Under the pieces are notes generated by a model. It saw only the letters and a list, made by a program, of their open reading frames with translations. It did not search any database and was not told where the DNA came from. A stretch of DNA of 64,000 bases from Antedon mediterranea. Taxonomy: Eukaryota > Animalia > Echinodermata. The translations under genes and the position numbers were made by a program. How positions within the stretch are numbered: position 1 is the stretch's first letter; the number at the start of each line of letters is the position of its first letter. The stretch covers positions 25,562,871 to 25,626,870 of the forward strand of contig NC_092676.1 in the NCBI RefSeq assembly GCF_964355755.1, read 5' to 3'. Below are positions 3,879 to 27,980 of this stretch, in pieces.

Positions 3879-4170
3879 AGACAAACATACACACAAGATG
3901 CTCTACATAAACAAAGTCTTATTACAAGTCTTTGGGAGTGGAGTTTGTCCTTAGAAAAAATCCTGACATGTGACGGGACTTGAACCCAGGACCCTTGGAG
4001 TGTTTATTTTTTGTTTGATTGTTTGTTTTATTGTTTGTTGTCCATGGTCAATATCTCATTGCTATGAGAATGTACATGTAATTTCCAGACCATATGCACT
4101 GATTATTATTATGTACCTAACTGTGTTCGTAGGGTGTACAAATAAATGAATGTTTATGATTTGAATAGGA

Positions 4171-4800
4171 AGTGTGCTCCACGAAAAAATGTTTGTACCC
4201 GCTATAGGTTAAATGTCAAAATAAGGTGTTTTTAAACATTTTGTGTATTTCTGTTGTATTAGAGCAAATATAATTATATATATTGCGAGAAATTTGAGAC
4301 TAAAATTATAACTTTCTGACTAGTGGTTGCTGAGATATTGATTTGGCTATTTTCTTGACCAATGGTCAAAAATAAAGTTTCACTGTCATTTTTTGGCAAA
4401 AGTTGTCCATTAAAGTGATAGAAATATGTATATTTTGAGTGTTTTGACACCAACTATGACCATATCTACCCACAAATTTCTGAGATATGAAAAGTGTGCT
4501 CCAAGCCAAAAATATTTGTGCCGGCTATATGTCAAAGGTCAAAATTAAGGGTTTATTGACAGTTTTATGATTTTTATTACATTAGAACAAATATAAACAT
4601 ATACTTTGCGAGTAATTTGAGACCACAATTATCACTTTCTGACCACTGGTTGCTGAGATATTTATATGTCCAATTTATTGACCAGTGGTCAGAAAAGGGG
4701 TTTCTGTCCACTTTTGGCAAAAGTTTGCCATTAGATTGAATAGAAATATGGGTCTTCTGAGTAGTTTGATAAAAAAAAATATTCCAATACACCCAGTAGT
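4171..4800. repeat. Two diverged ~320-bp tandem units (satellite-like or non-autonomous transposon interior)
   Basis: aagtgtgctcca at ~4170 and ~4492; shared tggttgctgagatatt and ttttggcaaaagtt blocks. Confidence 0.65.
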
Positions 4801-5091
4801 TACCAAGTTACGCAAAGTCTTAACTTTGACCATATTGACCTTTTGGCCCTTGTACTGACCGAGCATCCCAATTTTTTTCGGCCAACAGCAAAAAATTGAT
4901 TTGTATTGATATAAGGAAGCAAAAAAACATTGTTGGCATAGTTTGCTAGAGGGTGCAGGTAAACCCCTTGTGGCTCCCCAACTATACGTAGGTCGCACAA
5001 TCAGCATCTTGATACTACTGTACTTTATTCCTCTCTTTAAAGTGTAGACCTATAGCTAGGCCTATGTACTTAATAGCAATGTTAGATAAAC

Positions 5092-5696
5092 ATGTCGGTG
5101 ATATACAAGAATGCTAAGATCAATAGAATGCATAGAATAGATGATGGATGTGTTCTATACAGTGATACACTCAAAAAGAGTGTCGTAATGTGTAATAATA
5201 AATTTGAAGAAATATCTCAATTTGGCAAACAAATATTGAAAGTCCTCCCTAAGTGTTTTTAATTTCGATATTGACGATGGTAACCTTCTGGGTAAGATAG
5301 GTTCAAAAGGTAGTGAAGAAGGACAACTGTATATTCCACAATATGTCACCCTAATAAGGGAAGGTAATTTAATGATTACTGAGTCTGGTAATAATAGAAT
5401 ACAACTGTTTGATGCAAATGGTATGTATTTAGAAACACATATTGATCCGGGCGAAGAAGATGGGAAAGTCCTTTGTGTATAGTAATGGACACGGATGAAA
5501 ATATAATTGTATCCAGTGCTCATAAACTACAATTATTTGATAAAAAATGGTGTTTTTGTCAAACGAATAGATAATAAAGATGATGGAATTTGATGAAATT
5601 AAATTTCCATGCGGCATTACAATAATCGCTAATAGACCAAGACGACTGACAATTGCAAACTTAGGAGAAAATAATGTTAAAATATTTAATTACTAA
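5092..5696 (+). pseudogene. NHL-repeat (TRIM2/3/71-type beta-propeller) pseudogene with 48-bp deletion
   Basis: Fragments KIGSKGSEEGQLYIPQYVTL..MITESGNNRIQLFDANG and ...IANLGENNVKIFNY*; frameshifts and early stop. Confidence 0.85.
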
Positions 5697-6104
5697 ACAG
5701 TATCTTGCTTACTAAATAATTGTAAACACAACTCGAATGATCTCCAAGTGGAATATTCTGTAATCATAGAAAACAATGATACAGAAGAAAATAACAATTA
5801 CACTGTAAGATAGCAAATCCCCTTTGAACTTATCCAATGATAGACTATGGTATTTATGGTGCACTCAAAATCATATTGACAATCAATCTAGTGTAGCCTA
5901 CACACTTTATAACCAATGATAAATATTTATTTCTAATTGATAGGTCCATTTTTATATCTTTATTTGTTGTTCTAGATAGTTTATCCGATTGTATATAGTT
6001 TAATTGTTGTTTTATTAGGATCACGTGAGTAAACACTGCACATTGCAATACAGAATTATAAATTCTTATGAAACAAGTGCATGTTTGCCGACATCGTGGC
6101 AATT

Positions 6105-6195
6105 TGTTTTGAATTTCAATATTGACTATGGTAAAATTTTGGGAAAATAGGTTCAAAAGGTAAAGGGGCAACTGTATATTGCACAAGGTGTCACG
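6105..6195 (+). pseudogene. Older degenerate NHL fragment (present in every sub-repeat)
   Basis: aatttcaatattgactatggtaaaattttgggaaaataggttcaaaaggt aligns by eye with NHL aatttcgatattgacgatggtaaccttctgggtaagataggttcaaaaggt. Confidence 0.7.
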
Positions 6196-6952
6196 TGTTT
6201 GCCGAACCGCTGCACATATACCATTATAATAAAGTTGAGTATTTGTTCATTCATTTTTTATTGTTCCACATAAAGTAAGAAAAGAAAATGATCAAGAAAA
6301 AACCTGTCTTTGTTTATTTGTGGAATCTCAACTAAGCCAAAAAGAGCTTAAAGTCTGAGTTTCCAAAAGACATTAAGGGCCTACATTGTACATGGTAACG
6401 TAAAATTGCTTTCTAAAAAAAAACCAGAAAAGTCAAATAGATTTTATTAGAATATCAATAGAATAGAAAAAGTAATATATAAATTCCATTCAGAGTAAAC
6501 TTATTAACTATCTAATAAATATTAATGGATAAATATTTTTTGTATTTTTTTTTTCAAAAAGGTTAGTGATGATTTAATATTATATCCTTATTTTGTTTTA
6601 TATATCATCGACATAAAAAAAAGCTTGCATTAAATGATCACGTGAATAAACACTGCAATACCCAACCAGAGGATTTTTTTTAACATTTTTATCTAATGTT
6701 AAAAATTTATAACATAAGCACCTATAGTTATTTAAAAGGAGTCAAATAATAAAATATTAGAAACTTGTTCGTATATTGTTGTCTTTATTATTTTACACAC
6801 TCCAAAATATGGTTTATTATTTTTTAAAGGCCTATACGGTACCGTATTGTTTCCACCTATTTGGCAACATGTACACCATGACATGTTGATTGTTATGTAG
6901 GCAGACAATTTATTACTTAAGGCTATACTACAAAAAGTCAAACGTTGAAAGC

Positions 6953-7367
6953 TTAAAGGCCAGGTGCGGGCAAAACATTTCTATTGATCATACATTCCAA
7001 TAATTATCGATCTATAGTTTCCCCTATGTTTCATAATTTTTTGGGATTTTATTTGTGTTACACGAGCTTGTTGAAATTAAGCACTTTCTTATCAGTGGGG
7101 GGATAGTTCAAATTACACAGTAAAATCTCTATTCTTTTGTACACACATTTTGTAAATAGAGAGGCATTTTTTAAAAGCTATGAAAAATAAACGGTGTGGT
7201 AAAAAATGTTATCAGATGACTAAATATAGGTAATATAACTTGAATATTACATTTCTGATATTTTTATTCAACTTCAGATATTTATTTTCATGCAAAAGCA
7301 AAAATTATCCACCGTATATCCCCCATCTTTTTTCACCGTCTAGGGAGTCACAAGACATGTTATTACA
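6953..7367. mobile_element. Truncated TTAA-inserted non-autonomous DNA transposon (Kolobok-like end TTAA-AGG)
   Basis: Starts ttaaaggccaggtgcggg; absent from the corresponding site at ~42076 (gcttaa-gcaaattt). Other end not seen. Confidence 0.45.
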
Positions 7368-7570
7368 AAAAATTGATTTGTATTGATATAAGGAAGCAAA
7401 AAAACATTGTTGGCATAGTTTGGTAGAGGGTGCAGGTAAACCCCTTCTGGCTCCCCAAATATACGTAGGTCGCACAATCAGCATCTTGATACTACTGTAC
7501 TTTATTCCTCTCTTTAAAGTGTAGACCTATAGCTATAGGCCTATGTACTTAATAGCAATGTTAGATAAAC

Positions 7571-8223
7571 ATGTCGGCGATATACAAGAATGCTAAGATC
7601 AATAGAATGCATAGAATAGATGATGGATGTGTTCTATACAGTGATACACTCACAAAGAGTGTCGTAATGTGTAATAATAAATTTGAAGAAATCTCTCAAT
7701 TTGGGAAACAAATATTGAAAGTCCTCCCTAAATGTTTAACGGTTAACAATGATATTCTTATACGTAGCAGAGGCACACAGTGTTTTTAATTTCGATATTG
7801 ACGATGGTAACCTTCTGGGTAAGATAGGTTCAAAAGGTAGTGAAGAAGGACAACTGTATATTCCACAATATGTCACCCTAATAAGGGAAGGTAATTTAAT
7901 GATTACTGAGTCTGGTAATAATAGAATACAACTGTTTGATGCAAATGGTACGTATTTAGAAACACTTATTGATCCGGGCGAAGAAGATGGGAAAGTCCTT
8001 TGTGTATAGTAATGGACACGGATGAAAATATAATTGTATCCAGTGCTCATAAACTACAATTATTTGATAAAAAATGGTGTTTTTGTCAAACGAATAGATA
8101 ATAAAGATGATGGAATTTGATGAAATTAAATTTCCATGCGGCATTACAATAATCGCTAATAGACCAAGAAGACTGACAATTGCAAACTTAGGAGAAAATA
8201 ATGTTAAAATATTTAATTACTAA
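7571..8223 (+). pseudogene. NHL-repeat pseudogene (full length, several frameshifts)
   Basis: MSAIYKNAK..CLTVNNDIL / YVAEAHSVFNFDIDDGNLLGKIGSKGSEEGQL..RIQLFDANG / IVMDTDENIIVSSAHKLQLFDK / NGVFVKRID / FPCGITIIANRPRRLTIANLGENNVKIFNY*. Confidence 0.88.
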
Positions 8224-9586
8224 CCAGTATCTTGCTTACTAAATAATTGTAAACACAACTCGAATGATCTCCAAGTGGAATATTCTGTAATCATAGAAAA
8301 CAATGATACAGAAGAAAATAACAATTACACTGTAAGATAGCAAATCCCCTTTGAACTTATCCAATGATAAACTATAGTATTTATGGTGTTGGGGATTTTT
8401 TAGAAAATTTTCAAAAGATTAAGTGTTTCTTTCTGCTAATGTGTAGGTTTATTTATGTGCCGCAATTAATATTAATTGCACTCAAAATCATATTGACAAT
8501 CTACTGTACATACTTGAACCCAATGATAAATATTTATTTCTAATTTTTATATCTTTATTTGTTGTTCTAGATATTTGTATTTGTATATAGGCCTAGATTG
8601 AGTGCTGTTTTATTAGGATCGCGTGAATAAACACTGCACATTGCAATACAGAAACAAGTTTATTATCGGGGCAATTTGTTTTTAATTTCAATATTGACGA
8701 TGGTAAAATGTTGGGAAAATAGGTTCAAAAGGGGCAACTGTACAAGGTGTCACGTGTTTGTCAAAGCGCTGCATTATATACCGTTATAATAAAGTTGAGT
8801 ATTTGTTCATTCATTTTTTTATTGTTCCACATAAAGTAAGAAAAAAAAGATCAAGAAAAAACCTGATTAAGTCTTTGTTTATGTGTGGAATCTCAAATAA
8901 GCCAATGAGGTCTTTAAGGCTGAGTTTCCAAAACACATTGGGCCTACATTGTACATGGTAACGTAGAATTGCTTTCTAAAAAAAAAAGAAGAAAAAAATC
9001 CAAACAGATTTTATTTGATATCAATAGAATAGACAAAGTAAGATATAAATTCCATAGGAGTAAACTTATTAACTATCTAATCAATATTAATGGTTAAATA
9101 TTTTTGTATTTTTGTTTTAATGTTATATCCTTAATTTGTTTTGTATATCACCGACATAAAAAAAACGCTTGCATTAAATGATCACGTGAATAAACACTGC
9201 AATAACACCAGAGGATGTTGTTAATTCGCTTTTTATTTCTATAATGTTAATATATATTTTAATTATAAACATAAGCGCCTATAGTTATTTAAAGTGAGTC
9301 AAATGATACAATGTTAAACTTGTTTGTATTTTGTTTGTCTTCATTATTTTACACACTCCAAAATATGGTTGTATTATTATTGATAATGCCTTTCTGTTAT
9401 GACTTATGTTATTCGGTGAAATGATATTCACCATGTTGATTGTAGGCAGACAATAAATAATATATCGATACGATTATTATTACTTTTTAGGCCCTATACT
9501 AAAAAAAAGTCAAACGTTAAAAAATTAATTGTATTTTATTACACTTAAGTCTCATTTATATTATTGTAGCAAATTACTTTGATGTC

Positions 9587-9805
9587 CTATATTATCTTTT
9601 TCTTCTTTCGAAAGAATGATAACTTTGTTTTCCTTTATATGTCCGATAAACTCTCTTTTAATTCACTAATTTGAATGTCTAAATCTGTTTTTGTACGGGA
9701 TAACGCCGATTCAAGTTCTTTCGTCGTAGGTTCAAGATTTCGTATTTTTTCGGTAGAGTTTTGTATGTATGTGTGGCCTTGTTCGTTAGGTTTAATAATC
9801 TCTAC
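9587..9805 (-). pseudogene. 3' remnant of a C-type TRIM-like gene
   Basis: Translates VEIIKPNEQGHTYIQNSTEKIRNLEPTTKELESALSRTKTDLDIQISELKESLSDI*RKTKLSFFRKKKK, matching the gene C end IEIIKTNEQRHTAIQKATEK..RTKRDLDTQIRELKESLSDIQRKKKALSFVRKK. Confidence 0.85.
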
Positions 9806-9853
9806 TTTAAATTTTAAATGTTAAAATGTTTTAATTACTAAACAGCATTATAC

Positions 9854-12800
9854 AAACTGAAACTACACCGAATGAATGGAATGAAGGGATAATTATCCCA
9901 ATATTTTAAAAAGGAGATCGACGTGATCTCAACAACTATCGAGGTATCACACTTAATTCACGTGTTTCTAAAATTTATTATCGAATTATTGTATATAATA
10001 TTTCTTAAATTTTAGAAGAAAATGACATCCTTGGTGAAGTCCAATGGGGCTTTCGGACAGACAGATGTGAAGACCCCATTTTTGTCTTGAAAAGCATTAT
10101 CGCCACAAGGCGTGCTGAGGGTAAAAAAAACATTTCTAGTCTTTTTGAACTTTAAAAAAGCCTTTGTTTCAGTTTGGCGATAAGGGTTAATTACTGCTGC
10201 CAAAAGAATTGGTATCCGTGGTAAACTTCTTAACTTAATAAGAAATATGTACTATGATTGATGAGTTTTGTTCAATGACTTTAGTCATTTTAGCATTAAT
10301 GAAGGAGTGAAACAAGGCTGTTCATTGTCACCAGTTCTTTTTCTATTTACATTAACGAACTAAATAACCTAATCAAAAGTTATAAACTAGGTGTTCAAAT
10401 CTATGACACACAAATAGGTGCAATATTCTTTGCTGATGACGTGGTTTTTAATCGGTGACAATGAGTCAGAACTTGTGAAACTACTTAAAGTAACAAGTGA
10501 TTATTCACAAAAATGGAAATTAGAGTTTAATTTTGACAAATCAAATGTGCTCAGGTCACAGGGCAAAGAGTTAATCCACATAGAACATGGAGCCTTGGTA
10601 ATCATTATATCACAGAAATGGAAATGTATAAATATCTTGGTGTAATAATATTACGTTCATACAGATTCAGACAATATCGTTACAATTTGTTTTTGTTTTT
10701 TGGGCCTATTGTAAACCAAGTGTTTTAAAACTACTTATATAAAAAATCCTGTACCCTAATCTTAAATACAGTTACATATTACAAATAAGGGATAATAACT
10801 CTTAACTTTTTTGGAAAAATAAAGCGTTTTGGTTAAGTAGTTTTTTAGCAAATGTAATTTTAGTTTTAATGTTACATTCTGACTGCTCAGGAAAGGTTTG
10901 GCGACTTCGAAAATTTTCCCCTATCCTTTAACACTATCCGGTCACTGACAAACCAAAACACTGCTTCAAAAAAGGGGCTGTGCCGACAAAGTATCTGAAC
11001 CAATCACATTTTACATTAGGTCATTAGAAAGCTTGATTGATTAGCTTTTGCATGGTGGAACAGCCAATATCATTGGATAACTAGGTCAAACGTTATGAAC
11101 GTTTTTGTAAAAATCTCAACAAATTGGCAGAACAAGCCTATTCTTTAAAACAGGGCAATTTTCAAATCGTCTAACTTTAAAAATCAATGCCGACGAAGTT
11201 TTTTTAAATTAAAATATTAAAAAATGTTTAAAATAACATGTTATTGTAGGTACTTAATTAGGCATTACAATGTCGAAACAGCCATAAAAATCGGTCAATT
11301 AATAACAAAGTTACATTGAAAAACCAAAAAAATTGCTGTTTTTTGGTGATTTCATGCCGTTTAGCGGAAATCGCCCGGATTTTTGGGTACATAAAACAAA
11401 TAATAAAAAAGGGAAATAGGATAATAGCCTATAGCTTATTACCTCTATTGTAAACAATCAGAATGATTTCAATAGGGTATAGCATACTACGGTCATCTTT
11501 TATGGAGAACAAGGACTACCAACAATTAATTACGCCTCTGCAATATGGTTATGTAACTTTAAAGGCTCACTAAATAAGTTAGAAAATTTACAATACCAAA
11601 TGGCTTTGAAGGCACCAAGAAACGTTGATGGTGACCTAGGATGGGAGACACTCTACACCATTCAAAATAAGTTTGGGATGTCCTACTTTAACAGAATTTA
11701 AAATATGGACGACCAAATGTGTCAAAAACTCCTATGTAAATCTATAATGGATGTAGAAGCTAAGGTGAAATGGAAGTGGATTAACCATATCAAAGATTTA
11801 TTATGTAAATTTGATTTAGGAAATAAGTTTAATTTAAATCCGGAAAGTCAATGGTTTAAGAGTTTTACACATGCCAACTCTCTAGAAAATATTAAGGAAT
11901 GGTTAAAAGGTGCATAAACAAAGTAAACCCTCTCCGAATATTTGAAATATAAACACGAACCTAAAGCATGCTTGATATGGTGAATTTTGACTCCTTTAGT
12001 TTAAAGTTTAAAGCGAGGTCTAACTCTCTTGATTTAGAAGGTAGATAAAATACATGGTCAGAAAATGAGCCTGGTTTTTGCAAGCTATGCAACAATCAGG
12101 TAATTTAAACTACAGACCATTTTCTACTTGAATGTTCAAACCTTAAAAATGTAGGAGATACACATTTTAACTAAAAATTGATTTATTGTATTGTGGTTAT
12201 GATACATTCTGGGAGAATTTTAGAAGTGGTACAATCGACTACCAACATCATATTTCCATTTGAGAGAATAGGTGAAATTGTAGACAATCACTGTAAACAA
12301 TACTTAGCTGCTGCATGGAGACATAGAAAGACTACACTTATATAATTATATATATAATATATAAATGTTTACCGCCCACCATATTATCTACTAACTTTTA
12401 TTTTACCATTTATCTAATTCAATAATATATATATTATATATATTTTTTTAAATTTTGTTTTCTTTCTCCAAAATTATATAATCTAACCTAAATCTAAATT
12501 AAATAATATAAATAAATAATACAGTACGAAAAATAAGACTAAATAATATAATAAAAATAGTATCACGTTTAATTAAATTACAAATAACTATTAAAATTAA
12601 ATATAATAAGAACAAATAATCATATAACAGTTGCATTAATTTTAATAACAACAGTATATTAAAATTAATTATCAATTATATTTTTTAATAATAATAATGA
12701 TAATATTCGCTTTAAACTTGAAAATATTAATAATACTGACAACAAAAATAATGATAATAAATAGATAATAAAATTAACTACATCATATAGGTCATATAGA

Positions 12801-12955
12801 TTGTTCGATCTGTAAGATTATCTTGTTTTTACTATTTCATTTTACTTGTATAATTCGCTTCTTATTTAAGACTTAAATGTCTTTTCTTTTTGTGTTTAAA
12901 TTGCCTTATAAACGCTGATACAAAAGCGTTTGTTCAATAAAAGTTTTAGTTTTTT
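9854..12955 (+). mobile_element. 5'-truncated decayed non-LTR retrotransposon (LINE; RTE-X/CR1/L2-like RT)
   Basis: Motifs PNEWNEGIIIPIF, NYRGITL, QWGFR, GVKQGCSLSPVLF, FFADD, YKYLGV, and C-terminal CKLC..DHFLLEC; AATAAA then a short T-rich tail; candidate TSD agcattatac (9844)/agcatcatac (12956). Confidence 0.88.
10686..11400. mobile_element. ~715-bp insertion nested in the LINE
   Basis: Short inverted ends TTTGTTTT/AAAACAAA; removing it restores the in-frame read DNIVT-IIKKG. Confidence 0.6.
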
Positions 12956-14371
12956 AGCATCATACTTATAAAATAATTGTAAACTCGGATCGAATGACCT
13001 TTAACAGTCCAATAGGAATATTGTGTAAACATAGCAAACGATAAAGCAAATATCAATACATTAACTTTAAAGCAATATCTCTCTTTGAACTCAGTTTATG
13101 ATTACAAATGGATTGTTTCGAAAATTTACCAAAAAAAGATAGGCCTAATTTGATGATTGGAGTGTTGGTTTTCTTGCTAATCATTTTATATGTATTTGTC
13201 AAACGTTCCGCCTACTAATAGTAAATATATTGGTTTGCTTTTGCACTCATTAGGTTCATAGTTACCACCTTTATAAAGAGTATCTGACTAAACAAACAAG
13301 GTAGATGAAACTCCCTAAAAACAAAATGTTAAATATAACGTTGAGAGGAATACGGTGTGAGTAAAAGAAACTAGATTTAATTCATCCCTATGACGAATTA
13401 TAAGTTATATGCATTGATTTAAATAAGGATAATTTAATTTTTTAAAGATAGTAATTCATTGATTTTGTCAGAATTTATAATTAGTAAAGAAAGATAAAAT
13501 CTTGTTGCCGCAAACACTGAACATCGAGCCACCATACACAACCAGAGATCCTTCCGCGTACGTCGTAAACCATTATGCATATAGATAATTACAATAATGA
13601 AAACATAAATCACTTTTCTCAAAATTTCATTATAAATCATACGTATAACTTATACACTAAGAAACCAAATTGAACAAATGCGGATATAAAACAAAATATT
13701 TATTCGTAAACGCGATCTCGGTACCACGAATATTATTAGACGTGATCAATTTGGAATATTGACATTCATTAGAATTTAAAAAACATCTACTTTGTACACC
13801 AATGTATCATATATAATAATTGTCATAGTATGTCTAAAACAAGCAAAATTCCATTCATTCGGTTGTCACTCGTGACTTCATCTCCTGACTAATGTAAAAT
13901 AATTCATCAATTATTAATAAACAATACAATATCAGTATTACTTTTTGGTACTAGAGGTCAAATGAAAATAAGATCAAATTGTTTATCTTACCCTTTGTAC
14001 GCCAAAATTGTACAAGATATCTAAAAATTAGGCTTTACAAATAACTTTTAAAAATGGAGGTCCCCTTTTATTCCGAGAAGCTCATAGAGATTTAAAAAAA
14101 TGGCATGTTTACACAAATAATTGTTTAGCTTGACGTGGAAATTTAAAGAAAACAATATAACTGTATCAGCTTTATAAAGCAAGTTTTTATTATGTGAATA
14201 ATATTTAAAAAAATGTGAGATTGAAATGTGCTTAGATAATAGGTACAAAAAATCTGTACGAAGAGAAAGATCTGCCGAAATTCAGAAAATAGGAATTGAG
14301 AATAGGAAGTCTGGTGATAGCTTTTGCAATGTGAAATTTCATTACTTGCAGATGAATCATACATAAATTCA

Positions 14372-15265
14372 TCAATCGAAATTTATACTATCTATATCTT
14401 CATAACTTAGGCCTTGATAATAATAAAACGGTATTCCGTTGTTTCCTCTATCTCCTGCAGCTTCACCCTCCTCATCCTGCTGCTGCTCCTCTTGTTCACA
14501 CCGCTGCTCCTCTTCATCATCCTGCTGCTCCTCCTCACCCTCCTCTGGTCGATGAACCGAATGAAGATTATTTAATGATATACAGACAATTTCTATCAAC
14601 CGATTTCGTCTTCGGAATGGATTCATTAGTGCTAAAAACTTCGTTTTAATCCCCTTTCTGTTTTTCTTTTTTATTCTTATTTTAAGATTTGTTATTTTCT
14701 TAGCTCGAGCCTTTAAATCTCTTTCAACACTGGATACTTCTGTAATCCTTTGTGTAAGCGTACTTTCAAGATTTTGTAGTTGTTGAGTAACGTTTTGTAA
14801 TTCATTTTTTAGTTCGTCCCTCGTTCTTGCAAGGTCTTCAATTTGTATAGCTCGGGCATCTGAATTTGTCATCATCTCATCCATCATTGATTTAATTTCA
14901 TTTAGGCCTTGTTCATTTTCTACCTTGTTAAGAGCATCTTTCAGTCTTTCAATGTTCATGTTGTTTCTAGTAAAAGTTCGCCCTGATTCTATAGCTTTAA
15001 TCAAGCATTCCTTAGCGTTATTAACCAAAAAATCCGGTGGAAGTTCTTCTAAACCATTCATTGGAATTTGGGTTTCCCTTCTACACAAAGCACATTCAAT
15101 TTTGAATTCATTAGGGTCCTCTCTACATTCTTCATATTGAATTATGCATTTTAAGCAAAACGAGTGTCCACACAAAAGACGTTTAGGCTGTTCCATTTGC
15201 TCCAAACACATTTTACATTGAGTAATCTCCTTTAAAAATGTAATTGGGTCGTCTGGCTCTGCCAT
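14372..15265 (-). CDS. Intronless RING + coiled-coil TRIM-like protein lacking B-box, gene A (297 aa)
   Basis: RING CKMC..CGHSFCLKC..CALCR; TRIM-type linker IPMNGLEELPPDFLVN; heptads; basic patch; acidic E/Q tail. Confidence 0.9.
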   Translation of the reverse strand: MAEPDDPITFLKEITQCKMCLEQMEQPKRLLCGHSFCLKCIIQYEECREDPNEFKIECALCRRETQIPMNGLEELPPDFLVNNAKECLIKAIESGRTFTRNNMNIERLKDALNKVENEQGLNEIKSMMDEMMTNSDARAIQIEDLARTRDELKNELQNVTQQLQNLESTLTQRITEVSSVERDLKARAKKITNLKIRIKKKNRKGIKTKFLALMNPFRRRNRLIEIVCISLNNLHSVHRPEEGEEEQQDDEEEQRCEQEEQQQDEEGEAAGDRGNNGIPFYYYQGLSYEDIDSINFD

Positions 15266-15823
15266 GTTGTACTTACTTACGATTTAAACTTTTAGCCCTT
15301 ATATAATAACTTTATAGGGAGCTGACCTGCTTTCTTCGGTAAAAACAGTAACCAGTCAAATTGATTAACGGACAACCACGTTTCGTACGTCTCACCACGT
15401 TTCAGTACAGTTTAATTATTCTGCGTTATTTCCACCACGATACATTTCCGCGCCTATATTTTGTAAGCATCAGTTTAGGTATCAGTTCGTAGACAAAGAT
15501 TGTCATCTAGAATAAACAAGGTCTTCCTTTTAATTATTATCAATGATGTGATTATTTATCAAAAGACAAAACTTATCTGTTACTGTCCATCGGTTTCCTA
15601 CCCTAAAAAACTTTCCATCGGGTAAATCCACTTGAATGTTGGATATTTGAAGATGAATATGCGTCTTTTAAACACCCCCATTTGTAATGGGTTCGTCGGT
15701 GCATGTCATTTCGTGAGTGGCTGGCCGCCACAACAATAAAACAGGTCAGATAAAAGATCTCTGAATACAATTTTCGGCATCGATTATTGTTTTCGACTTT
15801 CGACAATTCATTTTCACGTCAAA

Positions 15824-16951
15824 ATGTCAACATACGCGGATTCGGAGGAATTGGTTAGATTTTCTACAATATGTTCAATGTGCCGTGAAACAAAGGTAGA
15901 TCCCAGACTTCTTGAATGTGGTCATTCGTTTTGCTGTAATTGTTTAGATCAGAAACATAAAACCATGCAAAAGGCGAGTAAATCATTCTTTGCTGTCGAT
16001 ACTAACATTAGGTGTGTTGTTTGTCATAGTTCAAGTATAATTCCTAAAAAGGGTGCTAAGGAACTTCAAAAGCCTAATTTGATTGCTACCGCAACTGAAT
16101 GTTTTAATATAGCTCAGCAAAATGCATTCATTTTTGTTAAACTTCCAGCATGCACAAACCCTCTTCATAACGATGTCTTGTGGTGTGAAACATGTATGGT
16201 TTACATATGCAGTAGGTGTTCACATAGGCCTAGGCGAGAAGATCATAATCAGTACTGCCACTTTAGTTCAAATATCGATTTCTTAGAGGCCCATGAAAAG
16301 GTGAAACAAAGAATACGCAAAATTGAAAGAGAAAATAAACTATTAAAAGAGTCCAATGAATCAATAGGACAAAAAAAGGAACAAAGAGCCAGGCAACAAG
16401 TACAAAAACTTCAACGATTGAAAACACAGAGCGACAGTGACTTACAAACGGCCAAGCAACAAGTACAAGAACTTCAACGATTGAAAACACAGAGCGACCG
16501 TGACTTACAAAGGGCCAAGCAACAAGTACAAGAACTTCAACAATTGAATGAACAAACCGAGAGTGACTTTAGAAACGCTTATGAAAGAATACAACATGTT
16601 GATTTAACGTTGGAAAAAGTAAACCAGCTTAGAGACAATTCTGAAACACAAACTAGAGACATACACGATCTTGAACAAATAAAAGAACAAAACAATAGTG
16701 TAGTACAAAACGTAAAACAAAAAATAGAAGATCTTGAAGGTAAGATGGAAGAAATTAACCTGAAAACTTCCAGTCTTAAAGAAGATTCTGATGCTCAAAC
16801 TAAAAATTTAGAAATTCTTGAAAGAAAGCAAGAACAAATTGAATTACAAGAGCACACTCAAAAAAGAAAAAAGAAAATAAATGTTTTTTCTGCAGCGAGA
16901 AATCGATTCCGAAGACGAAGACATAATTCTTTCGATGATTTCATTGGGTGA
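15824..16951 (+). CDS. TRIM-like RBCC gene B, copy 2
   Basis: Protein identical to 816-1943. Confidence 0.92.
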   Translation: MSTYADSEELVRFSTICSMCRETKVDPRLLECGHSFCCNCLDQKHKTMQKASKSFFAVDTNIRCVVCHSSSIIPKKGAKELQKPNLIATATECFNIAQQNAFIFVKLPACTNPLHNDVLWCETCMVYICSRCSHRPRREDHNQYCHFSSNIDFLEAHEKVKQRIRKIERENKLLKESNESIGQKKEQRARQQVQKLQRLKTQSDSDLQTAKQQVQELQRLKTQSDRDLQRAKQQVQELQQLNEQTESDFRNAYERIQHVDLTLEKVNQLRDNSETQTRDIHDLEQIKEQNNSVVQNVKQKIEDLEGKMEEINLKTSSLKEDSDAQTKNLEILERKQEQIELQEHTQKRKKKINVFSAARNRFRRRRHNSFDDFIG

Positions 16952-18562
16952 AGACAGCTTGTGCGGCAAGATGCGGAGCAATCAAAACTCAAACAGTAGC
17001 CTACATTGTATTACAAATTCACGTGTAGATCTCAGTAAATTATCACATTTTGTAAATTTCAGAACAAACAATTTAGGTTCTTTGGATTTTTAGGCCATAA
17101 TGTAGAGTAAATGAGTAAATAAAGTAATAAACTCCCAATTCTAAACTTGTTTTCAAAATTTAATGTAACATTATCGGAGTTTAATAATCAAATCTAGCTA
17201 AACCATGTACGCCTACAGTTGTTTTTTTTTCCCAGTCTTTTTGCAATTGTGTGAGCTGGGACAAATATTTATTAGAAAGTCGATTAATTAAATATGTATA
17301 ATTTAGTTAAATTGAAGTTTCCCTGTTGTTTGTAATAATTGGAAGCTACAATTACGTTGTTAGTATTCTTTTAAATACGATATCACCAGACGTTTTATTG
17401 TTGTTGTTTCCGGCGCGGAAAATATGGGTGCACACTGAAAGGCGGAAAAAACGATGCCAGCTCATTATTTCACTTTTTAAACAATACAAAAATGTTTAAT
17501 TACAAACATCATGTAGACCTTTCTTTTAAAACTATTTATCAAGAGTAAAAGAAATTAGAAATGTTGGGATATTTTTTGTTTAACGAAAATGTCGGGAGGA
17601 AATTGTATTTTATCGGAAGATTATTCAAAAAAAGTAAGGTATGCTTTTCAATCAAATTTTAGAATTAATAAATTGATACTAAACTGTATATGAAGATAAC
17701 TTTTATTGACTATTGTATTATTTTTTCTCTGTGTTAGTTTCAACATCTTGCAAGCATATCATCGTATGAGTATTAACTACTAATAAACAGGTGCAATAAA
17801 TTAAATTTAACCCCCATTATAGATAAGCCGATAGTTTGAATCAATAACGAGGCATATACTGACCGTATTAATTCGTAATTAATTTCTGTAATTTTTGGAA
17901 AGTGCCGAAAACGTTACAGTTAAATCAATTAACCCATATCAGGATTACTGTACATTGGTCCAATTGTTTTTTCCCCATTAGACTGCACGCATCCGTACTG
18001 GGGTATAAAAATGACTGTAATTCATTGCACTCGAAATGTTTAAAGTTTGAAACATTATCCGCCATCCCTGGAGGGAGGTTGGAGGGTTTGGGTGGGAGAG
18101 TAATGGCGTTTCAAAATTACCGGAATCAGTGTACGAATGTTTTAAATACATTGAAAACTGCCAGGGAGAGGTTGTGGGTTGTGACGGTAATGGAGTATCA
18201 ACATGGCCAGAATTACTCTGAATTTGTTTGCAGTTGTCCGATTTAGTTGGGAAACGGAAACTCATAGTCCCCCAGTCTTCATTTCATAAATCTTACTTTG
18301 TATAAAAGTACTATGTGGTTTATTCGAGTATAATATGCATATTCATTATAATTGAACATAACGATATTGCAACAAGTGATCTATAAATTGTGAACTTGCC
18401 GGTACTGTCAACAGATAAAGTGATAAAATGTCTAGATTAAAAACTAATAGCGTCAATTATGATTTCGCTTTTGATTAGGTTTATTCACAAACTATAATGT
18501 TTGTGACTTCGTAAGAATTTACAAAGTTAAGTTGTGTTCAGGACCACCATCGGAAACTCACA

Positions 18563-18885
18563 AGTGAGTGAGTGGCCGAGCGGTTAAGACAGTGGAACCG
18601 TAATCACGTAGCCGTAACATCGGCAGGGGTTCGAGGCTCACTCACTCCATGGTTCTGGTGGTAGAACGAGTCTTCTCGGATAAGGACTATAAACCGTAGG
18701 TCCAGTGTACACAACTTGCTCGTGTGCACTTTAAAGAACCTAGTACATTTTTCGAGACGAGTAGGGGGTTACCCCGGTGTATTAGTACATCACAGCCACT
18801 GATCACCAACTGGGCCCTCTGGGAGATCAGTCTTTGACTGAAGAGGTCACCCAGTATAAAGATAAAACAAACAAACAAACAAACA
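18563..18885 (+). mobile_element. V-SINE-like SINE, copy 2
   Basis: Copy of 3556-3878. Confidence 0.8.
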
Positions 18886-20098
18886 AGACAAACATACACA
18901 CAAGATGCTCTACATAAACAAAGTCTTATTACAAGTCTTTGGGAGTGGAGTTTGTCCTTAGAAAAAATCCTGACATGTGACGGGACTTGAACCCAGGACC
19001 CTTGGAGTGTTTATTTTTTGTTTGATTGTTTGTTTTATTGTTTGTTGTCCATGGTCAATATCTCATTGCTATGAGAATGTACATGTAATTTCCAGACCAT
19101 ATGCACTGATTATTATTATGTACCTAACTGTGTTCGTAGGGTGTACAAATAAATGAATGTTTATGATTTGAATAGGAAGTGTGCTCCACGAAAAAATGTT
19201 TGTACCCGCTATAGGTTAAATGTCAAAATAAGGTGTTTTTAAACATTTTGTGTATTTCTGTTGTATTAGAGCAAATATAATTATATATATTGCGAGAAAT
19301 TTGAGACTAAAATTATAACTTTCTGACTAGTGGTTGCTGAGATATTGATTTGGCTATTTTCTTGACCAATGGTCAAAAATAAAGTTTCACAGTCATTTTT
19401 TGGCAAAAGTTGTCCATTAAAGTGATAGAAATATGTATATTTTGAGTGTTTTGACACCAACTATGACCATATCTACCCACAAATTTCTGAGATATGAAAA
19501 GTGTGCTCCAAGCCAAAAATATTTGTGCCGGCTATATGTCAAAGGTCAAAATTAAGGGTTTATTGACAGTTTTATGATTTTTATTACATTAGAACAAATA
19601 TAAACATATACTTTGCGAGTAATTTGAGACCACAATTATCACTTTCTGACCACTGGTTGCTGAGATATTTATATGTCCAATTTATTGACCAGTGGTCAGA
19701 AAAGGGGTTTCTGTCCACTTTTGGCAAAAGTTTGCCATTAGATTGAATAGAAATATGGGTCTTCTGAGTAGTTTGATACAAAAAAATATTCCAATACACC
19801 CAGTAGTTACCAAGTTACGCAAAGTCTTAACTTTGACCATATTGACCTTTTGGCCCTTGTACTGACCGAGCATCCCAATTTTTTTCGGCCAACAGCAAAA
19901 AATTGATTTGTATTGATATAAGGAAGCAAAAAAACATTGTTGGCATAGTTTGCTAGAGGGTGCAGGTAAACCCCTTGTGGCTCCCCAACTATACGTAGGT
20001 CGCACAATCAGCATCTTGATACTACTGTACTTTATTCCTCTCTTTAAAGTGTAGACCTATAGCTAGGCCTATGTACTTAATAGCAATGTTAGATAAAC

Positions 20099-20703
20099 AT
20101 GTCGGTGATATACAAGAATGCTAAGATCAATAGAATGCATAGAATAGATGATGGATGTGTTCTATACAGTGATACACTCAAAAAGAGTGTCGTAATGTGT
20201 AATAATAAATTTGAAGAAATATCTCAATTTGGCAAACAAATATTGAAAGTCCTCCCTAAGTGTTTTTAATTTCGATATTGACGATGGTAACCTTCTGGGT
20301 AAGATAGGTTCAAAAGGTAGTGAAGAAGGACAACTGTATATTCCACAATATGTCACCCTAATAAGGGAAGGTAATTTAATGATTACTGAGTCTGGTAATA
20401 ATAGAATACAACTGTTTGATGCAAATGGTATGTATTTAGAAACACATATTGATCCGGGCGAAGAAGATGGGAAAGTCCTTTGTGTATAGTAATGGACACG
20501 GATGAAAATATAATTGTATCCAGTGCTCATAAACTACAATTATTTGATAAAAAATGGTGTTTTTGTCAAACGAATAGATAATAAAGATGATGGAATTTGA
20601 TGAAATTAAATTTCCATGCGGCATTACAATAATCGCTAATAGACCAAGACGACTGACAATTGCAAACTTAGGAGAAAATAATGTTAAAATATTTAATTAC
20701 TAA
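20099..20703 (+). pseudogene. NHL pseudogene (48-bp deletion type)
   Basis: Copy of 5092-5696. Confidence 0.85.
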
Positions 20704-22598
20704 ACAGTATCTTGCTTACTAAATAATTGTAAACACAACTCGAATGATCTCCAAGTGGAATATTCTGTAATCATAGAAAACAATGATACAGAAGAAAATA
20801 ACAATTACACTGTAAGATAGCAAATCCCCTTTGAACTTATCCAATGATAGACTATGGTATTTATGGTGCACTCAAAATCATATTGACAATCAATCTAGTG
20901 TAGCCTACACACTTTATAACCAATGATAAATATTTATTTCTAATTGATAGGTCCATTTTTATATCTTTATTTGTTGTTCTAGATAGTTTATCCGATTGTA
21001 TATAGTTTAATTGTTGTTTTATTAGGATCACGTGAGTAAACACTGCACATTGCAATACAGAATTATAAATTCTTATGAAACAAGTGCATGTTTGCCGACA
21101 TCGTGGCAATTTGTTTTGAATTTCAATATTGACTATGGTAAAATTTTGGGAAAATAGGTTCAAAAGGTAAAGGGGCAACTGTATATTGCACAAGGTGTCA
21201 CGTGTTTGCCGAACCGCTGCACATATACCATTATAATAAAGTTGAGTATTTGTTCATTCATTTTTTATTGTTCCACATAAAGTAAGAAAAGAAAATGATC
21301 AAGAAAAAACCTGTCTTTGTTTATTTGTGGAATCTCAACTAAGCCAAAAAGAGCTTTAAGTCTGAGTTTCCAAAAGACATTAAGGGCCTACATTGTACAT
21401 GGTAACGTAAAATTGCTTTCTAAAAAAAAAAACAGAAAAGTCAAATAGATTTTATTAGAATATCAATAGAATAGAAAAAGTAAGATATAAATTCCATTCA
21501 GAGTAAACTTATTAACTATCTAATCAATATTAATGGATAAATATTTTTTGTATTTTTTTTTTTCAAAAAGGTTGGTGATGATTTAATATTATATCCTTAT
21601 TTTGTTTTATATATCATCGACATAAAAAAAAGCTTGCATTAAATGATCACGTGAATAAACACTGCAATACCCCACCAGAGGATTTTTTTTATATTTTTAT
21701 CTAATGTTAACAATTTATAACATAAGCACCTATAGTTATTTAAAAGGAGTCAAATAATAAAATATTAGAAACTTGTTCGTATTTTGTTGTCTTTATTATT
21801 TTACACACTCCAAAATAAGGTTTATTATTTTTTAAAGGCCTATACGGTACCGTATTGTTTCCACCTATTTGGCGACATATACACCATGACATGTTGATTG
21901 TTATGTAGGCAGACAATAAATAATATGTCGATACGATATTATACTTAAGGCTATACTACAAAAAGTCAAACGTTGAAAGCTTAAAGGCCAGGTGCGGGCA
22001 AAACATTTCTATTGATCATACATTCCAATAATTATCGATCTATAGTTTCCCCTATGTTTCATAATTTTTTGGGATTTTATTTGTGTTACACGAGCTTGTT
22101 GAAAATAAGCACTTTCTTATCAGTGGGGGGATAGTTCAAATTACACAGTAAAATCTCTATTCTTTTGTACACACATTTTGTAAATAGAGAGGCATTTTTT
22201 AAAAGCTATGAAAAATAAACGGTGTGGTAAAAAATGTTATCAGATGACTAAATATAGGTAATATAACTTGAATATTACATTTCTGATATTTTTATTCAAC
22301 TTCAGATATTTATTTTCATGCAAAAGCAAAAATTATCCACCGTATATCCCCCATCTTTTTTCACCGTCTAGGGAGTCACAAGACATGTTATTACAAAAAA
22401 TTGATTTGTATTGATATAAGGAAGCAAAAAAACATTGTTGGCATAGTTTGGTAGAGGGTGCAGGTAAACCCCTTCTGGCTCCCCAAATATACGTAGGTCG
22501 CACAATCAGCATCTTGATACTACTGTACTTTATTCCTCTCTTTAAAGTGTAGACCTATAGCTATAGGCCTATGTACTTAATAGCAATGTTAGATAAAC

Positions 22599-23251
22599 AT
22601 GTCGGCAATATACAAGAATGCTAAGATCAATAGAATGCATAGAATAGATGATGGATGTGTTCTATACAGTGATACACTCACAAAGAGTGTCGTAATGTGT
22701 AATAATAAATTTGAAGAAATCTCTCAATTTGGGAAACAAATATTGAAAGTCCTCCCTAAATGTTTAACGGTTAACAATGATATTCTTATACGTAGCAGAG
22801 GCACACAGTGTTTTTAATTTCGATATTGACGATGGTAACCTTCTGGGTAAGATAGGTTCAAAAGGTAGTGAAGAAGGACAACTGTATATTCCACAATATG
22901 TCACCCTAATAAGGGAAGGTAATTTAATGATTACTGAGTCTGGTAATAATAGAATACAACTGTTTGATGCAAATGGTACGTATTTAGAAACACTTATTGA
23001 TCCGGGCGAAGAAGATGGGAAAGTCCTTTGTGTATAGTAATGGACACGGATGAAAATATAATTGTATCCAGTGCTCATAAACTACAATTATTTGATAAAA
23101 AATGGTGTTTTTGTCAAACGAATAGATAATAAAGATGATGGAATTTGATGAAATTAAATTTCCATGCGGCATTACAATAATCGCTAATAGACCAAGAAGA
23201 CTGACAATTGCAAACTTAGGAGAAAATAATGTTAAAATATTTAATTACTAA
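22599..23251 (+). pseudogene. NHL pseudogene (full-length type)
   Basis: Copy of 7571-8223. Confidence 0.88.
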
Positions 23252-24614
23252 CCAGTATCTTGCTTACTAAATAATTGTAAACACAACTCGAATGATCTCC
23301 AAGTGGAATATTCTGTAATCATAGAAAACAATGATACAGAAGAAAATAACAATTACACTGTAAGATAGCAAATCCCCTTTGAACTTATCCAATGATAAAC
23401 TATAGTATTTATGGTGTTGGGGATTTTTTAGAAAATTTTCAAAAGATTAAGTGTTTCTTTCTGCTAATGTGTAGGTTTATTTATGTGCCGCAATTAATAT
23501 TAATTGCACTCAAAATCATATTGACAATCTACTGTACATACTTGAACCCAATGATAAATATTTATTTCTAATTTTTATATCTTTATTTGTTGTTCTAGAT
23601 ATTTGTATTTGTATATAGGCCTAGATTGAGTGCTGTTTTATTAGGATCGCGTGAATAAACACTGCACATTGCAATACAGAAACAAGTTTATTATCGGGGC
23701 AATTTGTTTTTAATTTCAATATTGACGATGGTAAAATGTTGGGAAAATAGGTTCAAAAGGGGCAACTGTACAAGGTGTCACGTGTTTGTCAAAGCGCTGC
23801 ATTATATACCGTTATAATAAAGTTGAGTATTTGTTCATTCATTTTTTTATTGTTCCACATAAAGTAAGAAAAAAAAGATCAAGAAAAAACCTGATTAAGT
23901 CTTTGTTTATGTGTGGAATCTCAAATAAGCCAATGAGGTCTTTAAGGCTGAGTTTCCAAAACACATTGGGCCTACATTGTACATGGTAACGTAGAATTGC
24001 TTTCTAAAAAAAAAAGAAGAAAAAAATCCAAACAGATTTTATTTGATATCAATAGAATAGACAAAGTAAGATATAAATTCCATAGGAGTAAACTTATTAA
24101 CTATCTAATCAATATTAATGGTTAAATATTTTTGTATTTTTGTTTTAATGTTATATCCTTAATTTGTTTTGTATATCACCGACATAAAAAAAACGCTTGC
24201 ATTAAATGATCACGTGAATAAACACTGCAATAACACCAGAGGATGTTGTTAATTCGCTTTTTATTTCTATAATGTTAATATATATTTTAATTATAAACAT
24301 AAGCGCCTATGGTTATTTAAAGTGAGTCAAATGATACAATGTTAAACTTGTTTGTATTTTGTTTGTCTTCATTATTTTACACACTCCAAAATATGGTTGT
24401 ATTATTATTGATAATGCCTTTCTGTTATGACTTATGTTATTCGGTGAAATGATATTCACCATGTTGATTGTAGGCAGACAATAAATAATATATCGATACG
24501 ATTATTATTACTTTTTAGGCCCTATACTAAAAAAAAGTCAAACGTTAAAAAATTAATTGTATTTTATTACACTTAAGTCTCATTTATATTATTGTAGCAA
24601 ATTACTTTGATGTC

Positions 24615-24833
24615 CTATATTATCTTTTTCTTCTTTCGAAAGAATGATAACTTTGTTTTCCTTTATATGTCCGATAAACTCTCTTTTAATTCACTAATTT
24701 GAATGTCTAAATCTGTTTTTGTACGGGATAACGCCGATTCAAGTTCTTTCGTCGTAGGTTCAAGATTTCGTATTTTTTCGGTAGAGTTTTGTATGTATGT
24801 GTGGCCTTGTTCGTTAGGTTTAATAATCTCTAC
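24615..24833 (-). pseudogene. 3' remnant of C-type TRIM-like gene, copy 2
   Basis: Copy of 9587-9805. Confidence 0.85.
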
Positions 24834-24881
24834 TTTAAATTTTAAATGTTAAAATGTTTTAATTACTAAACAGCATTATAC

Positions 24882-27800
24882 AAACTGAAACTACACCGAA
24901 TGAATGGAATGAAGGGATAATTATCCCAATATTTTAAAAAGGAGATCGACGTGATCTCAACAACTATCGAGGTATCACACTTAATTCACGTGTTTCTAAA
25001 ATTTATTATCGAATTATTGTATATAATATTTCTTAAATTTTAGAAGAAAATGACATCCTTGGTGAAGTCCAATGGGGCTTTCGGACAGACAGATGTGAAG
25101 ACCCCATTTTTGTCTTGAAAAGCATTATCGCCACAAGGCGTGCTGAGGGTAAAAAAAACATTTCTAGTCTTTTTGAACTTTAAAAAAGCCTTTGTTTCAG
25201 TTTGGCGATAAGGGTTAATTACTGCTGCCAAAAGAATTGGTATCCGTGGTAAACTTCTTAACTTAATAAGAAATATGTACTATGATTGATGAGTTTTGTT
25301 CAATGACTTTAGTCATTTTAGCATTAATGAAGGAGTGAAACAAGGCTGTTCATTGTCACCAGTTCTTTTTCTATTTACATTAACGAACTAAATAACCTAA
25401 TCAAAAGTTATAAACTAGGTGTTCAAATCTATGACACACAAATAGGTGCAATATTCTTTGCTGATGACGTGGTTTTTAATCGGTGACAATGAGTCAGAAC
25501 TTGTGAAACTACTTAAAGTAACAAGTGATTATTCACAAAAATGGAAATTAGAGTTTAATTTTGACAAATCAAATGTGCTCAGGTCACAGGGCAAAGAGTT
25601 AATCCACATAGAACATGGAGCCTTGGTAATCATTATATCACAGAAATGGAAATGTATAAATATCTTGGTGTAATAATATTACGTTCATACAGATTCAGAC
25701 AATATCGTTACAATTTGTTTTTGTTTTTTGGGCCTATTGTAAACCAAGTGTTTTAAAACTACTTATATAAAAAATCCTGTACCCTAATCTTAAATACAGT
25801 TACATATTACAAATAAGGGATAATAACTCTTAACTTTTGTGGAAAAATAAAGCGTTTTGGTTAAGTAGTTTTTTAGCAAATGTAATTTTAGTTTTAATGT
25901 TACATTCTGACTGCTCAGGAAAGGTTTGGCGACTTCGAAAATTTTCCCCTATCCTTTAACACTATCCGGTCACTGACAAACCAAAACACTGCTTCAAAAA
26001 AGGGGCTGTGCCGACAAAGTATCTGAACCAATCACATTTTACATTAGGTCATTAGAAAGCTTGATTGATTAGCTTTTGCATGGTGGAACAGCCAATATCA
26101 TTGGATAACTAGGTCAAACGTTATGAACGTTTTTGTAAAAATCTCAACAAATTGGCAGAACAAGCCTATTCTTTAAAACAGGGCAATTTTCAAATCGTCT
26201 AACTTTAAAAATCAATGCCGACGAAGTTTTTTTAAATTAAAATATTAAAAAATGTTTAAAATAACATGTTATTGTAGGTACTTAATTAGGCATTACAATG
26301 TCGAAACAGCCATAAAAATCGGTCAATTAATAACAAAGTTACATTGAAAAACCAAAAAAATTGCTGTTTTTTGGTGATTTCATGCCGTTTAGCGGAAATC
26401 GCCCGGATTTTTGGGTACATAAAACAAATAATAAAAAAGGGAAATAGGATAATAGCCTATAGCTTATTACCTCTATTGTAAACAATCAGAATGATTTCAA
26501 TAGGGTATAGCATACTACGGTCATCTTTTATGGAGAACAAGGACTACCAACAATTAATTACGCCTCTGCAATATGGTTATGTAACTTTAAAGGCTCACTA
26601 AATAAGTTAGAAAATTTACAATACCAAATGGCTTTGAAGGCACCAAGAAACGTTGATGGTGACCTAGGATGGGAGACACTCTACACCATTCAAAATAAGT
26701 TTGGGATGTCCTACTTTAACAGAATTTAAAATATGGACGACCAAATGTGTCAAAAACTCCTATGTAAATCTATAATGGATGTAGAAGCTAAGGTGAAATG
26801 GAAGTGGATTAACCATATCAAAGATTTATTATGTAAATTTGATTTAGGAAATAAGTTTAATTTAAATCCGGAAAGTCAATGGTTTAAGAGTTTTACACAT
26901 GCCAACTCTCTAGAAAATATTAAGGAATGGTTAAAAGGTGCATAAACAAAGTAAACCCTCTCCGAATATTTGAAATATAAACACGAACCTAAAGCATGCT
27001 TGATATGGTGAATTTTGACTCCTTTAGTTTAAAGTTTAAAGCGAGGTCTAACTCTCTTGATTTAGAAGGTAGATAAAATACATGGTCAGAAAATGAGCCT
27101 GGTTTTTGCAAGCTATGCAACAATCAGGTAATTTAAACTACAGACCATTTTCTACTTGAATGTTCAAACCTTAAAAATGTAGGAGATACACATTTTAACT
27201 AAAAATTGATTTATTGTATTGTGGTTATGATACATTCTGGGAGAATTTTAGAAGTGGTACAATCGACTACCAACATCATATTTCCATTTGAGAGAATAGG
27301 TGAAATTGTAGACAATCACTGTAAACAATACTTAGCTGCTGCATGGAGACATAGAAAGACTACACTTATATAATTATATATATAATATATAAATGTTTAC
27401 CGCCCACCATATTATCTACTAACTTTTATTTTACCATTTATCTAATTCAATAATATATATATTATATATATTTTTTTAAATTTTGTTTTCTTTCTCCAAA
27501 ATTATATAATCTAACCTAAATCTAAATTAAATAATATAAATAAATAATACAGTACGAAAAATAAGACTAAATAATATAAAAATAGTATCACGTTTAATTA
27601 AATTACAAATAACTATTAAAATTAAATATAATAAGAACAAATAATCATATAACAGTTGCATTAATTTTAATAACAACAGTATATTAAAATTAATTATCAA
27701 TTATATTTTTTAATAATAATAATGATAATATTCGCTTTAAACTTGAAAATATTAATAATATTGACAACAAAAATAATGATAATAAATAGATAATAAAATT

Positions 27801-27980
27801 AACTACATCATATAGGTCATATAGATTGTTCGATCTGTAAGATTATCTTGTTTTTACTATTTCATTTTACTTGTATAATTCGCTTCTTATTTAAGACTTA
27901 AATGTCTTTTCTTTTTGTGTTTAAATTGCCTTATAAACGCTGATACAAAAGCGTTTGTTCAATAAAAGTTTTAGTTTTTT
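24882..27980 (+). mobile_element. Decayed LINE with nested insertion, copy 2
   Basis: Copy of 9854-12955. Confidence 0.88.

Follow-up and report, generated by a model that had tools for sequence, protein, structure and literature searches.

A window of 64,000 nucleotides (nt) in the genome of the crinoid Antedon mediterranea (contig NC_092676.1, positions 25,562,871 to 25,626,870 of the forward strand) carries TRIM-like genes, A, B, C, and D, that are arranged back-to-back in two divergent pairs, A/B and C/D. The window is this whole stretch, and positions are counted from its first letter. We propose, at a probability of approximately 0.42, that a back-to-back TRIM-like pair was copied as a block both long ago and recently, and that its weak plus-strand member tunes its minus-strand neighbor through predicted binding. 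The arrangement of the genes, the repeat, an element shared between the spacers, the domains present, and the residues in which the RINGs differ are observed features of this DNA.

Results

Arrangement of the gene pairs

Gene A (copy 2; 14372..15265, minus strand; 297 aa, 894 nt) and gene B (copy 2; 15824..16951, plus strand; 375 aa, 1128 nt) are single open reading frames (ORFs) separated by a spacer of 558 bp (15266..15823), which likely acts as a bidirectional promoter. Genes C (42851..44095, minus strand; 414 aa) and D (44552..45829, plus strand; 425 aa) flank a spacer of 456 bp (44096..44551). The places of the four genes and the lengths of both spacers agreed with a first-pass annotation of this DNA. 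A, B, C, and D are all unbroken, and the term intronless refers to this property alone. Each of the four genes starts in a good context and is followed by an AATAAA signal, and the DNA has the AT-rich composition of an animal (26–37% GC). Head-to-head linkage of two unequal paralogs, a criterion used for paired NLRs, was present. In read run X5, which we guess to be RNA, A/B had no cover and C/D had low-depth cover; this run was not counted as evidence.

The A/B pair is part of a tandem array (1..38420) with a unit of ~15.0 kb, at least 2.5 units of which fall within the window. A self-comparison of the window showed 99.5% identity between 1–23416 and 15009–38420. The array also holds gene A copy 1 (1..257, minus strand), which is represented by its first 85 codons with the rest lost to the window start, and gene B copy 1 (816..1943, plus strand), the DNA of which is identical to B copy 2. 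A copy 3 (29397..30290, minus strand) is 2 nt off A copy 2 and B copy 3 (30849..31976, plus strand) is 1 nt off, such that copies differ by 2/894 nt in A and 0–1/1128 nt in B. The A/B arrangement had been counted three times in the first-pass annotation. Since these three pairs are copies of one tandem repeat, only two pairs, A/B and C/D, are independent. In a sample that may have been the source of the assembly, read-contig depth was 108 and 139 over A/B versus 24 over C/D. This difference fits a genuine array of multiple copies, while depth itself is not a copy number. Read contigs of lower depth contained variants of the acidic tail of A (14459–14625; 13 differences in 170 nt) and of the repeat in B (16482–16548; 3 differences in 67 nt).

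It had also been stated that both ORFs remained intact while neighboring sequences decayed. The decay is real, as the NHL remnants in the array are frameshifted. However, a comparison of two full units gave 48 substitutions (3 in ORFs) and 6 indels (0 in ORFs), for which 0.9 disabling events are expected under neutrality. Since the probability of observing none is then 0.40, the intactness of the ORFs in these young copies carries no signal.

All complete ORFs of the family within the window are in head-to-head pairs, and the earlier statement that every intact TRIM-like gene is paired holds in this sense. However, the window also contains an unpaired 3′ fragment of a C-like gene (9560..9807, minus strand; second copy, 24588–24835), which is interrupted by stops, has 82% nt identity to C, and lacks a D-like partner. 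Therefore, not every family member in this region survived in a pair. The interpretation of 9560–9807 as a displaced or spliced 3′ end of A was rejected; A is only 62–67% similar to C, as opposed to 82% for the fragment, and a remnant resembling a long interspersed nuclear element (LINE) intervenes.

Domain content

Pfam identified RINGs in A–C and B-boxes in C and D; other matches were of the coiled-coil type. The B-box model (PF00643) scored 24.5 bits in C (cut-off, 24.1) and 23.4 bits, just under the cut-off, in D. In B, the aligned Cys/His pattern of a B-box was present and a Pfam match was absent. A comprises a C3HC4 RING with a canonical-looking face for the ubiquitin-conjugating enzyme (E2), a coiled coil of ~100 aa, a basic motif, and an acidic tail. 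Since the B-box segment is missing, A is a TRIM-derived RING-coiled-coil protein and not a full RING-B-box-coiled-coil protein, and only B, C, and D are of the TRIM type proper. B has a RING with an altered E2 face, a B-box-like segment, a coiled coil containing a 21-aa (63-nt) repeat, and a basic tail. C has a RING, a B-box, and a coiled coil in which a 49-aa period is weakly developed, and D has a divergent RING, a B-box, and a coiled coil of ~270 aa composed of 49-aa repeats; the periods of 21 and 49 aa are multiples of the heptad. All 8 zinc ligands are present in the RING of D, yet Pfam gave no RING match at an expectation value (E) of 0.01. The ligands are complete in A and B as well. 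None of A–D has a C-terminal substrate domain, and Pfam detected no NB-ARC/NACHT, leucine-rich repeat (LRR), integrated sensor, or known toxic domain in them.

A structural model of D (mean predicted local distance difference test score, 72; predicted template modeling score, 0.27) comprised a RING, a B-box, and a long helix, with helices at 149–367 and 377–424, and resembled the structures of TRIM21, TRIM28, and TRIM2. By sequence, the best relatives with solved structures were the RING-B-box parts of TRIM2/TRIM3 (E 2e-17). In a comparison with the Atlas, D matched generic RING/B-box clusters only (under 0.9).

A basic tail segment is common to A and B in DNA (14600–14700, minus strand; 16820–16920, plus strand). 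The score of this A-B tail was reached by 0/300 codon shuffles; the corresponding numbers were 234/300 for C and 5/300 for D. The common tail may have arisen by gene conversion between A and B as inverted partners, or A may be a chimera.

Relatives of A–D

A profile of the four N-terminal parts was compared with 1.84 billion representatives and gave 6472 matches at E 0.001, the best 150 of which were listed; the relatives described herein are those among the matches listed. The nearest were uncharacterized crinoid TRIM-like proteins of the same RING-linker-B-box family, from A. mediterranea (XP_071952720.1, XP_071956991.1, XP_071955378.1, XP_071961013.1, XP_071949111.1, XP_071955983.1, and XP_071955376.1) and Anneissia japonica (XP_033114749.1). 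These 8 crinoid proteins join A–D in one clade (99/93). They are located on at least four contigs, none grouped with B+D, and none has a B/D-type RING. In contrast to A–D, 5/8 have a hydrophobic, likely membrane-spanning tail and 2/8 have a dynein-light-chain domain (Pfam PF01221). Their coiled-coil repeat also differs from that of A–D, the coiled coils of which match one another and none of the 8 crinoid relatives (E 0.01).

Unusual TRIM architectures, in which a RING-B-box-coiled-coil protein carries a dynein-light-chain domain or a hydrophobic tail, were noted in this crinoid family (P0008, P0013, and P0001–P0005). XP_071955376 and XP_071955378 have near-consecutive accessions on one contig, a hint of adjacency that was not used as evidence. 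Word-based homolog searches with D and C singly gave 0 matches among 76 and 65 candidates, respectively, and an alignment search of 7993 candidates returned 4 known relatives and one distant TRIM-NHL protein. Metagenome contigs yielded 2 distant RING loci among 203 candidates. No publication on this crinoid family or on the repeated co-duplication of a head-to-head TRIM pair was found among titles and abstract openings, with thin coverage of the subscription literature.

Differences among the RING surfaces

The residues of TRIM2 that contact E2~ubiquitin are I25, Y50, P61, V62, R64, and F81 (PMC9732051), and this numbering was carried onto the RINGs of A–D via an alignment with TRIM2. At I25/Y50/R64/F81, the residues are M/Y/R/F in A, I/H/R/C in C, M/K/H/N in B, and T/E/K/D in D. 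The residue after the second cysteine is L in A, Y in C, R in B, and D in D. Across the contacts I25, Y50, P61, R64, and F81, A retains most, C some, and B and D few.

R64 and F81 are kept in 8/8 of the crinoid relatives, five of which have Q at Y50. Among the other listed matches with a parsable RING (140/143), I25 is hydrophobic in 137 and R64 is kept in 117, while the Y50 site is K in one and E in none. The F81 site, which was parsed in 98/142, is F in 57. Since several of the E2/ubiquitin contacts kept by A and the crinoid relatives are replaced in B and D, the zinc ligands of which are retained, the plus-strand member of either pair is predicted from these residues to be a weak ligase or a pseudo-ligase. 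The polarity of the RINGs (A canonical, C intermediate, and B and D worn) is new here, and its consistency provides an added reason to consider a two-component module.

Duplication of the pair

The relationship between A/B and C/D probably reflects an old duplication of the whole pair, to judge from the aligned sequences. Over 88 ungapped codons of the RING region, the distances p(A,C) and p(B,D) were both 0.379, and the four cross comparisons were 0.43–0.53. Informative sites supported the AC/BD split at 26 positions and the AB/CD and AD/BC splits at 5 each. The only long DNA matches in the RING region were A-C (219 nt, 65%) and B-D (381 nt, 65%). The resemblance between members of the same strand, which had been noted previously, was confirmed; the best partner of A in the window was C (76 bits; B, 53; D, 50) and that of B was D (176 bits). 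C scored higher against D (114 bits) and B (85 bits) than against A. The equal distances, the 26:5:5 sites, and the spacer element described below support the suggestion of the first-pass annotation that the pair was duplicated as a unit. However, linkage alone explains co-duplication. The reciprocal clades expected from this suggestion were recovered in part: B+D formed a clade (100/100) and A+C did not. A quick tree included 60 non-window rows of the 150 listed matches.

Read contigs contained further pieces that were 84–85% similar to the 3′ end of C and to the 5′ and 3′ parts of D. These hint at another pair, adjacency not being implied.

Spacers and selection

The A/B and C/D spacers have one 24-nt element in common, which is in the same orientation, identical at 21/24 positions, and scores higher than any of 300 shuffles (0/300). 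Its core is at 15368..15386 (plus strand), and also at 360–378, 30393–30411, and 44355–44373. A search of the 64 kb with the element pattern (3 mismatches or fewer) gave 4 matches, all in the spacers, as follows from the construction of the pattern, and none elsewhere. Consensus NF-kB motifs and interferon-stimulated response elements were absent from both spacers. A 30-bp palindrome (28/30) at 44145–44174 is present in the C/D spacer and absent from the A/B spacer.

The ratio of nonsynonymous to synonymous substitution rates (dN/dS) between the RING-B-box parts of B and D was 0.41 (95% confidence interval [CI], 0.17–0.72), indicating purifying selection. Constraint was demonstrated for this N-terminal part of B-D only. 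The synonymous distance (dS) between the pairs was approximately 0.8–1.1. Ratios were calculated by NG86 on pairwise alignments and are rough at such a distance.

Other features of the window

The 15-kb unit contains a frameshifted NHL-repeat remnant (5190..5480, plus strand), with copies near 7750, 20200, 22780, 35280, 37780, and 40330. The 4/7 copies that were translated have frameshifts and stops, and no intact C-terminal NHL propeller is present downstream of B. Splicing from B into this DNA was rejected since the NHL copies are broken. The remnants matched TRIM-NHL proteins with E down to 3e-9 (tblastn) and may derive from a C-terminal part that an ancestral TRIM-NHL gene lost. A sub-repeat of ~2.5 kb with plus-strand NHL remnants is found inside and beyond the 15-kb unit (4889–8388, 19896–23416, and 34921–42077).

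A broken stretch at ~10400–11920 (plus strand), with a copy one unit on, is located just upstream of the dead C-like fragment. From its motifs, we take it to be a LINE-like reverse-transcriptase remnant; Pfam gave no fitting hit. An Rfam scan of 8000–48000 gave no match. Outside the array, a multi-exon gene at 48155–53641 (minus strand) was joined in a single contig of run X5 at a depth of 170. One of its exons presumably resembles the C-terminal repeat of RIPOR/FAM65, for which Pfam gave no support. Short interspersed repeats of very high copy number occupy 46864–47657, 48849–49245, and 53613–58267.

Discussion

We propose that the pairs arose and act as follows. An inverted duplication would have generated the first pair around one promoter. 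The plus-strand copy may then have diverged rapidly, with its E2/ubiquitin contacts changing and its zinc fold being kept. The block would subsequently have been duplicated, with both daughters retaining the polarity. Common cis-elements in the spacer would lead to the co-expression of both genes, and the related long coiled coils, together with the RING-flanking helices, may form non-obligate hetero-oligomers. In these, the minus-strand RING would recruit E2~ubiquitin, and the plus-strand protein would dampen or scaffold its activity. An immune role is plausible from the background of the family only.

A number of observations weigh against this proposal. The independent pairs number two. A lacks the B-box and its coiled coil is approximately half the length of that of B, and a decayed C-like fragment in the repeat unit is unpaired. 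With distant outgroups, an A+C clade was rejected by the approximately unbiased test (p-AU of 0.033 and 0.039 with 20 and 17 non-window rows, respectively); without them, it was not rejected (p-AU of 0.26; 8 non-window rows). The AC/BD split would also arise from a long B/D stem alone. Outside the shared element, the spacers aligned no better than shuffles (13/200 reached the score). The dN/dS values of the A-C RING (0.67; CI, 0.33–1.23) and the coiled coils (0.89 and 1.13) were not different from 1. Regarding the RINGs, the assignment of an active side is not assured because C lacks the aromatic residue at F81, and A, C, and 8/8 of the crinoid relatives lack the proline at P61, which is kept in 129/140 other listed matches. 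Conversely, B and D may be active, since His and Lys are also accepted at the linchpin position (PMC11992055) and the linchpin Arg is absent from 30/66 (45%) human RING TRIMs (PMC13591260). Hetero-dimers of close TRIM paralogs may also be functionless relics (PMC13591260), and TRIML1/TRIML2 are head-to-head TRIM paralogs of eutherians that are differently regulated (PMC6993854).

The same data may be explained by passive co-duplication, in which inverted TRIM-like duplicates 0.5 kb apart were copied together and function as independent homo-oligomers in a birth-and-death cluster; any shared promoter or cross-binding would then have little functional weight. This is a close rival because both genes would be included in any segmental duplication spanning a few kb, and we consider it a serious possibility. 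Dead NHL and LINE-like DNA was copied along with the genes in the recent 15-kb block, and the intact ORFs of these copies are expected by chance. Elsewhere in the family, the relative P0001 is a gene model that joins two copies on the same strand, and the dispersal of the 8 crinoid relatives over at least four contigs, with none joining B+D, fits independent genes, for which TRIML1/TRIML2 provide a precedent. However, passive copying does not readily account for the same RING polarity in both pairs over a dS of approximately 0.8–1.1, for a spacer element that is conserved while the remaining spacer is not, or for purifying selection on the B-D RING-B-box.

Stronger versions of a two-component module appear unlikely. 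In one, the pair is obligate, in the manner of a BRCA1-BARD1-like ubiquitin ligase (E3), a guard/effector system, or a toxin-antidote system, such that one gene is harmful or useless alone. The pairing of all complete family ORFs in the window, the combination of one canonical-looking RING with one worn RING, the similar lengths of the C and D coiled coils, and the death of the unpaired C-like piece are in its favor, as is the tail segment common to A and B in DNA and absent from C (0/300 codon shuffles). However, these observations come from two pairs, A lost the B-box and much of the coiled coil that B kept, Pfam found no sensor, NB-ARC, or known toxic domain, and no B/D-type partner was found among the listed crinoid relatives. 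We hold it similarly doubtful that the pair is a ligase-switch cassette of the crinoid lineage, in which a catalytic TRIM-like protein and a dedicated pseudo-ligase guard are expressed from one bidirectional promoter and bind only their cognate partner by means of co-evolving coiled-coil repeats, and which spread by duplication since either half is harmful or useless by itself. If true, animals would have in this cassette an E3 equivalent of the paired NLRs of plants.

It is more improbable still that A/B is an offshoot of the cluster in decay, or under hardly any constraint, whose amplification was due to chance and whose genes might not be expressed. The missing B-box and low-complexity acidic tail of A, dN/dS values that are not below 1 for A-C and the coiled coils, and a unit full of pseudogene debris would be expected in this case. 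In contrast, the reading frames of A and B (894 and 1128 nt) have remained open across a divergence at a dS near 1, all RING zinc ligands are kept, and each of the four genes has a good start context and an AATAAA signal downstream. The pair is very unlikely to be carried by a virus or a large mobile element, as single-ORF genes within a repeated block might suggest, since viral contigs contained no relative, the nearest listed relatives are crinoid proteins annotated on contigs of 1–41 Mb, and no ORF of at least 120 aa for a capsid, polymerase, or transposase is present in the 15-kb unit.

Regarding known systems, human TRIM2 and TRIM3 have filamin and NHL domains. They belong to class VII (PMC9732051) and heterodimerize, and TRIM51 represses TRIM49 (PMC11992055, PMC13591260, PMC9732051). 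In both cases, the two closely related proteins differ in activity, bind to each other, and regulate one another, whereas activity and binding are only predicted for A–D. A head-to-head or co-duplicated arrangement of TRIM2/TRIM3 or TRIM49/TRIM51 is not described in the available parts of these sources. TRIML1/TRIML2 are similar to the present pairs as divergent paralogous TRIM genes, one member of which lacks catalytic parts (PMC6993854). However, they encode PRY/SPRY proteins, TRIML2 lost the whole RING, and the available part of that source does not describe repeated co-duplication (PMC6993854). Regulation between close TRIM paralogs and a head-to-head TRIM paralog pair are, by these accounts, already established.

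BRCA1-BARD1 is an obligate dimer, whereas a hetero-dimer is a proposal only for A–D. The BRCA1 and BARD1 genes are unlinked, and their products lack a B-box and a long coiled coil. The likeness is in the combination of an active RING with a supporting inactive RING (PMC13591260). Plant paired NLRs and the pals ON/OFF modules of Caenorhabditis elegans (PMC10353827) are linked lineage-specific paralogs with unequal roles. This likeness is one of arrangement only; A–D are not homologous to these proteins and lack NB-ARC, TIR, LRR, and integrated decoy domains.

The weight of hetero-oligomers of close TRIM paralogs in vivo is an open question (PMC13591260). A pair that shares one spacer and was duplicated as a block with its polarity kept offers a natural comparison between cognate (A/B and C/D) and non-cognate (A/D and C/B) combinations. 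If binding and regulation are not cognate-specific, this region is an ordinary, fast-evolving TRIM cluster. If they are, the pairs would represent ligase/pseudo-ligase modules that evolve as genetic units in an animal.

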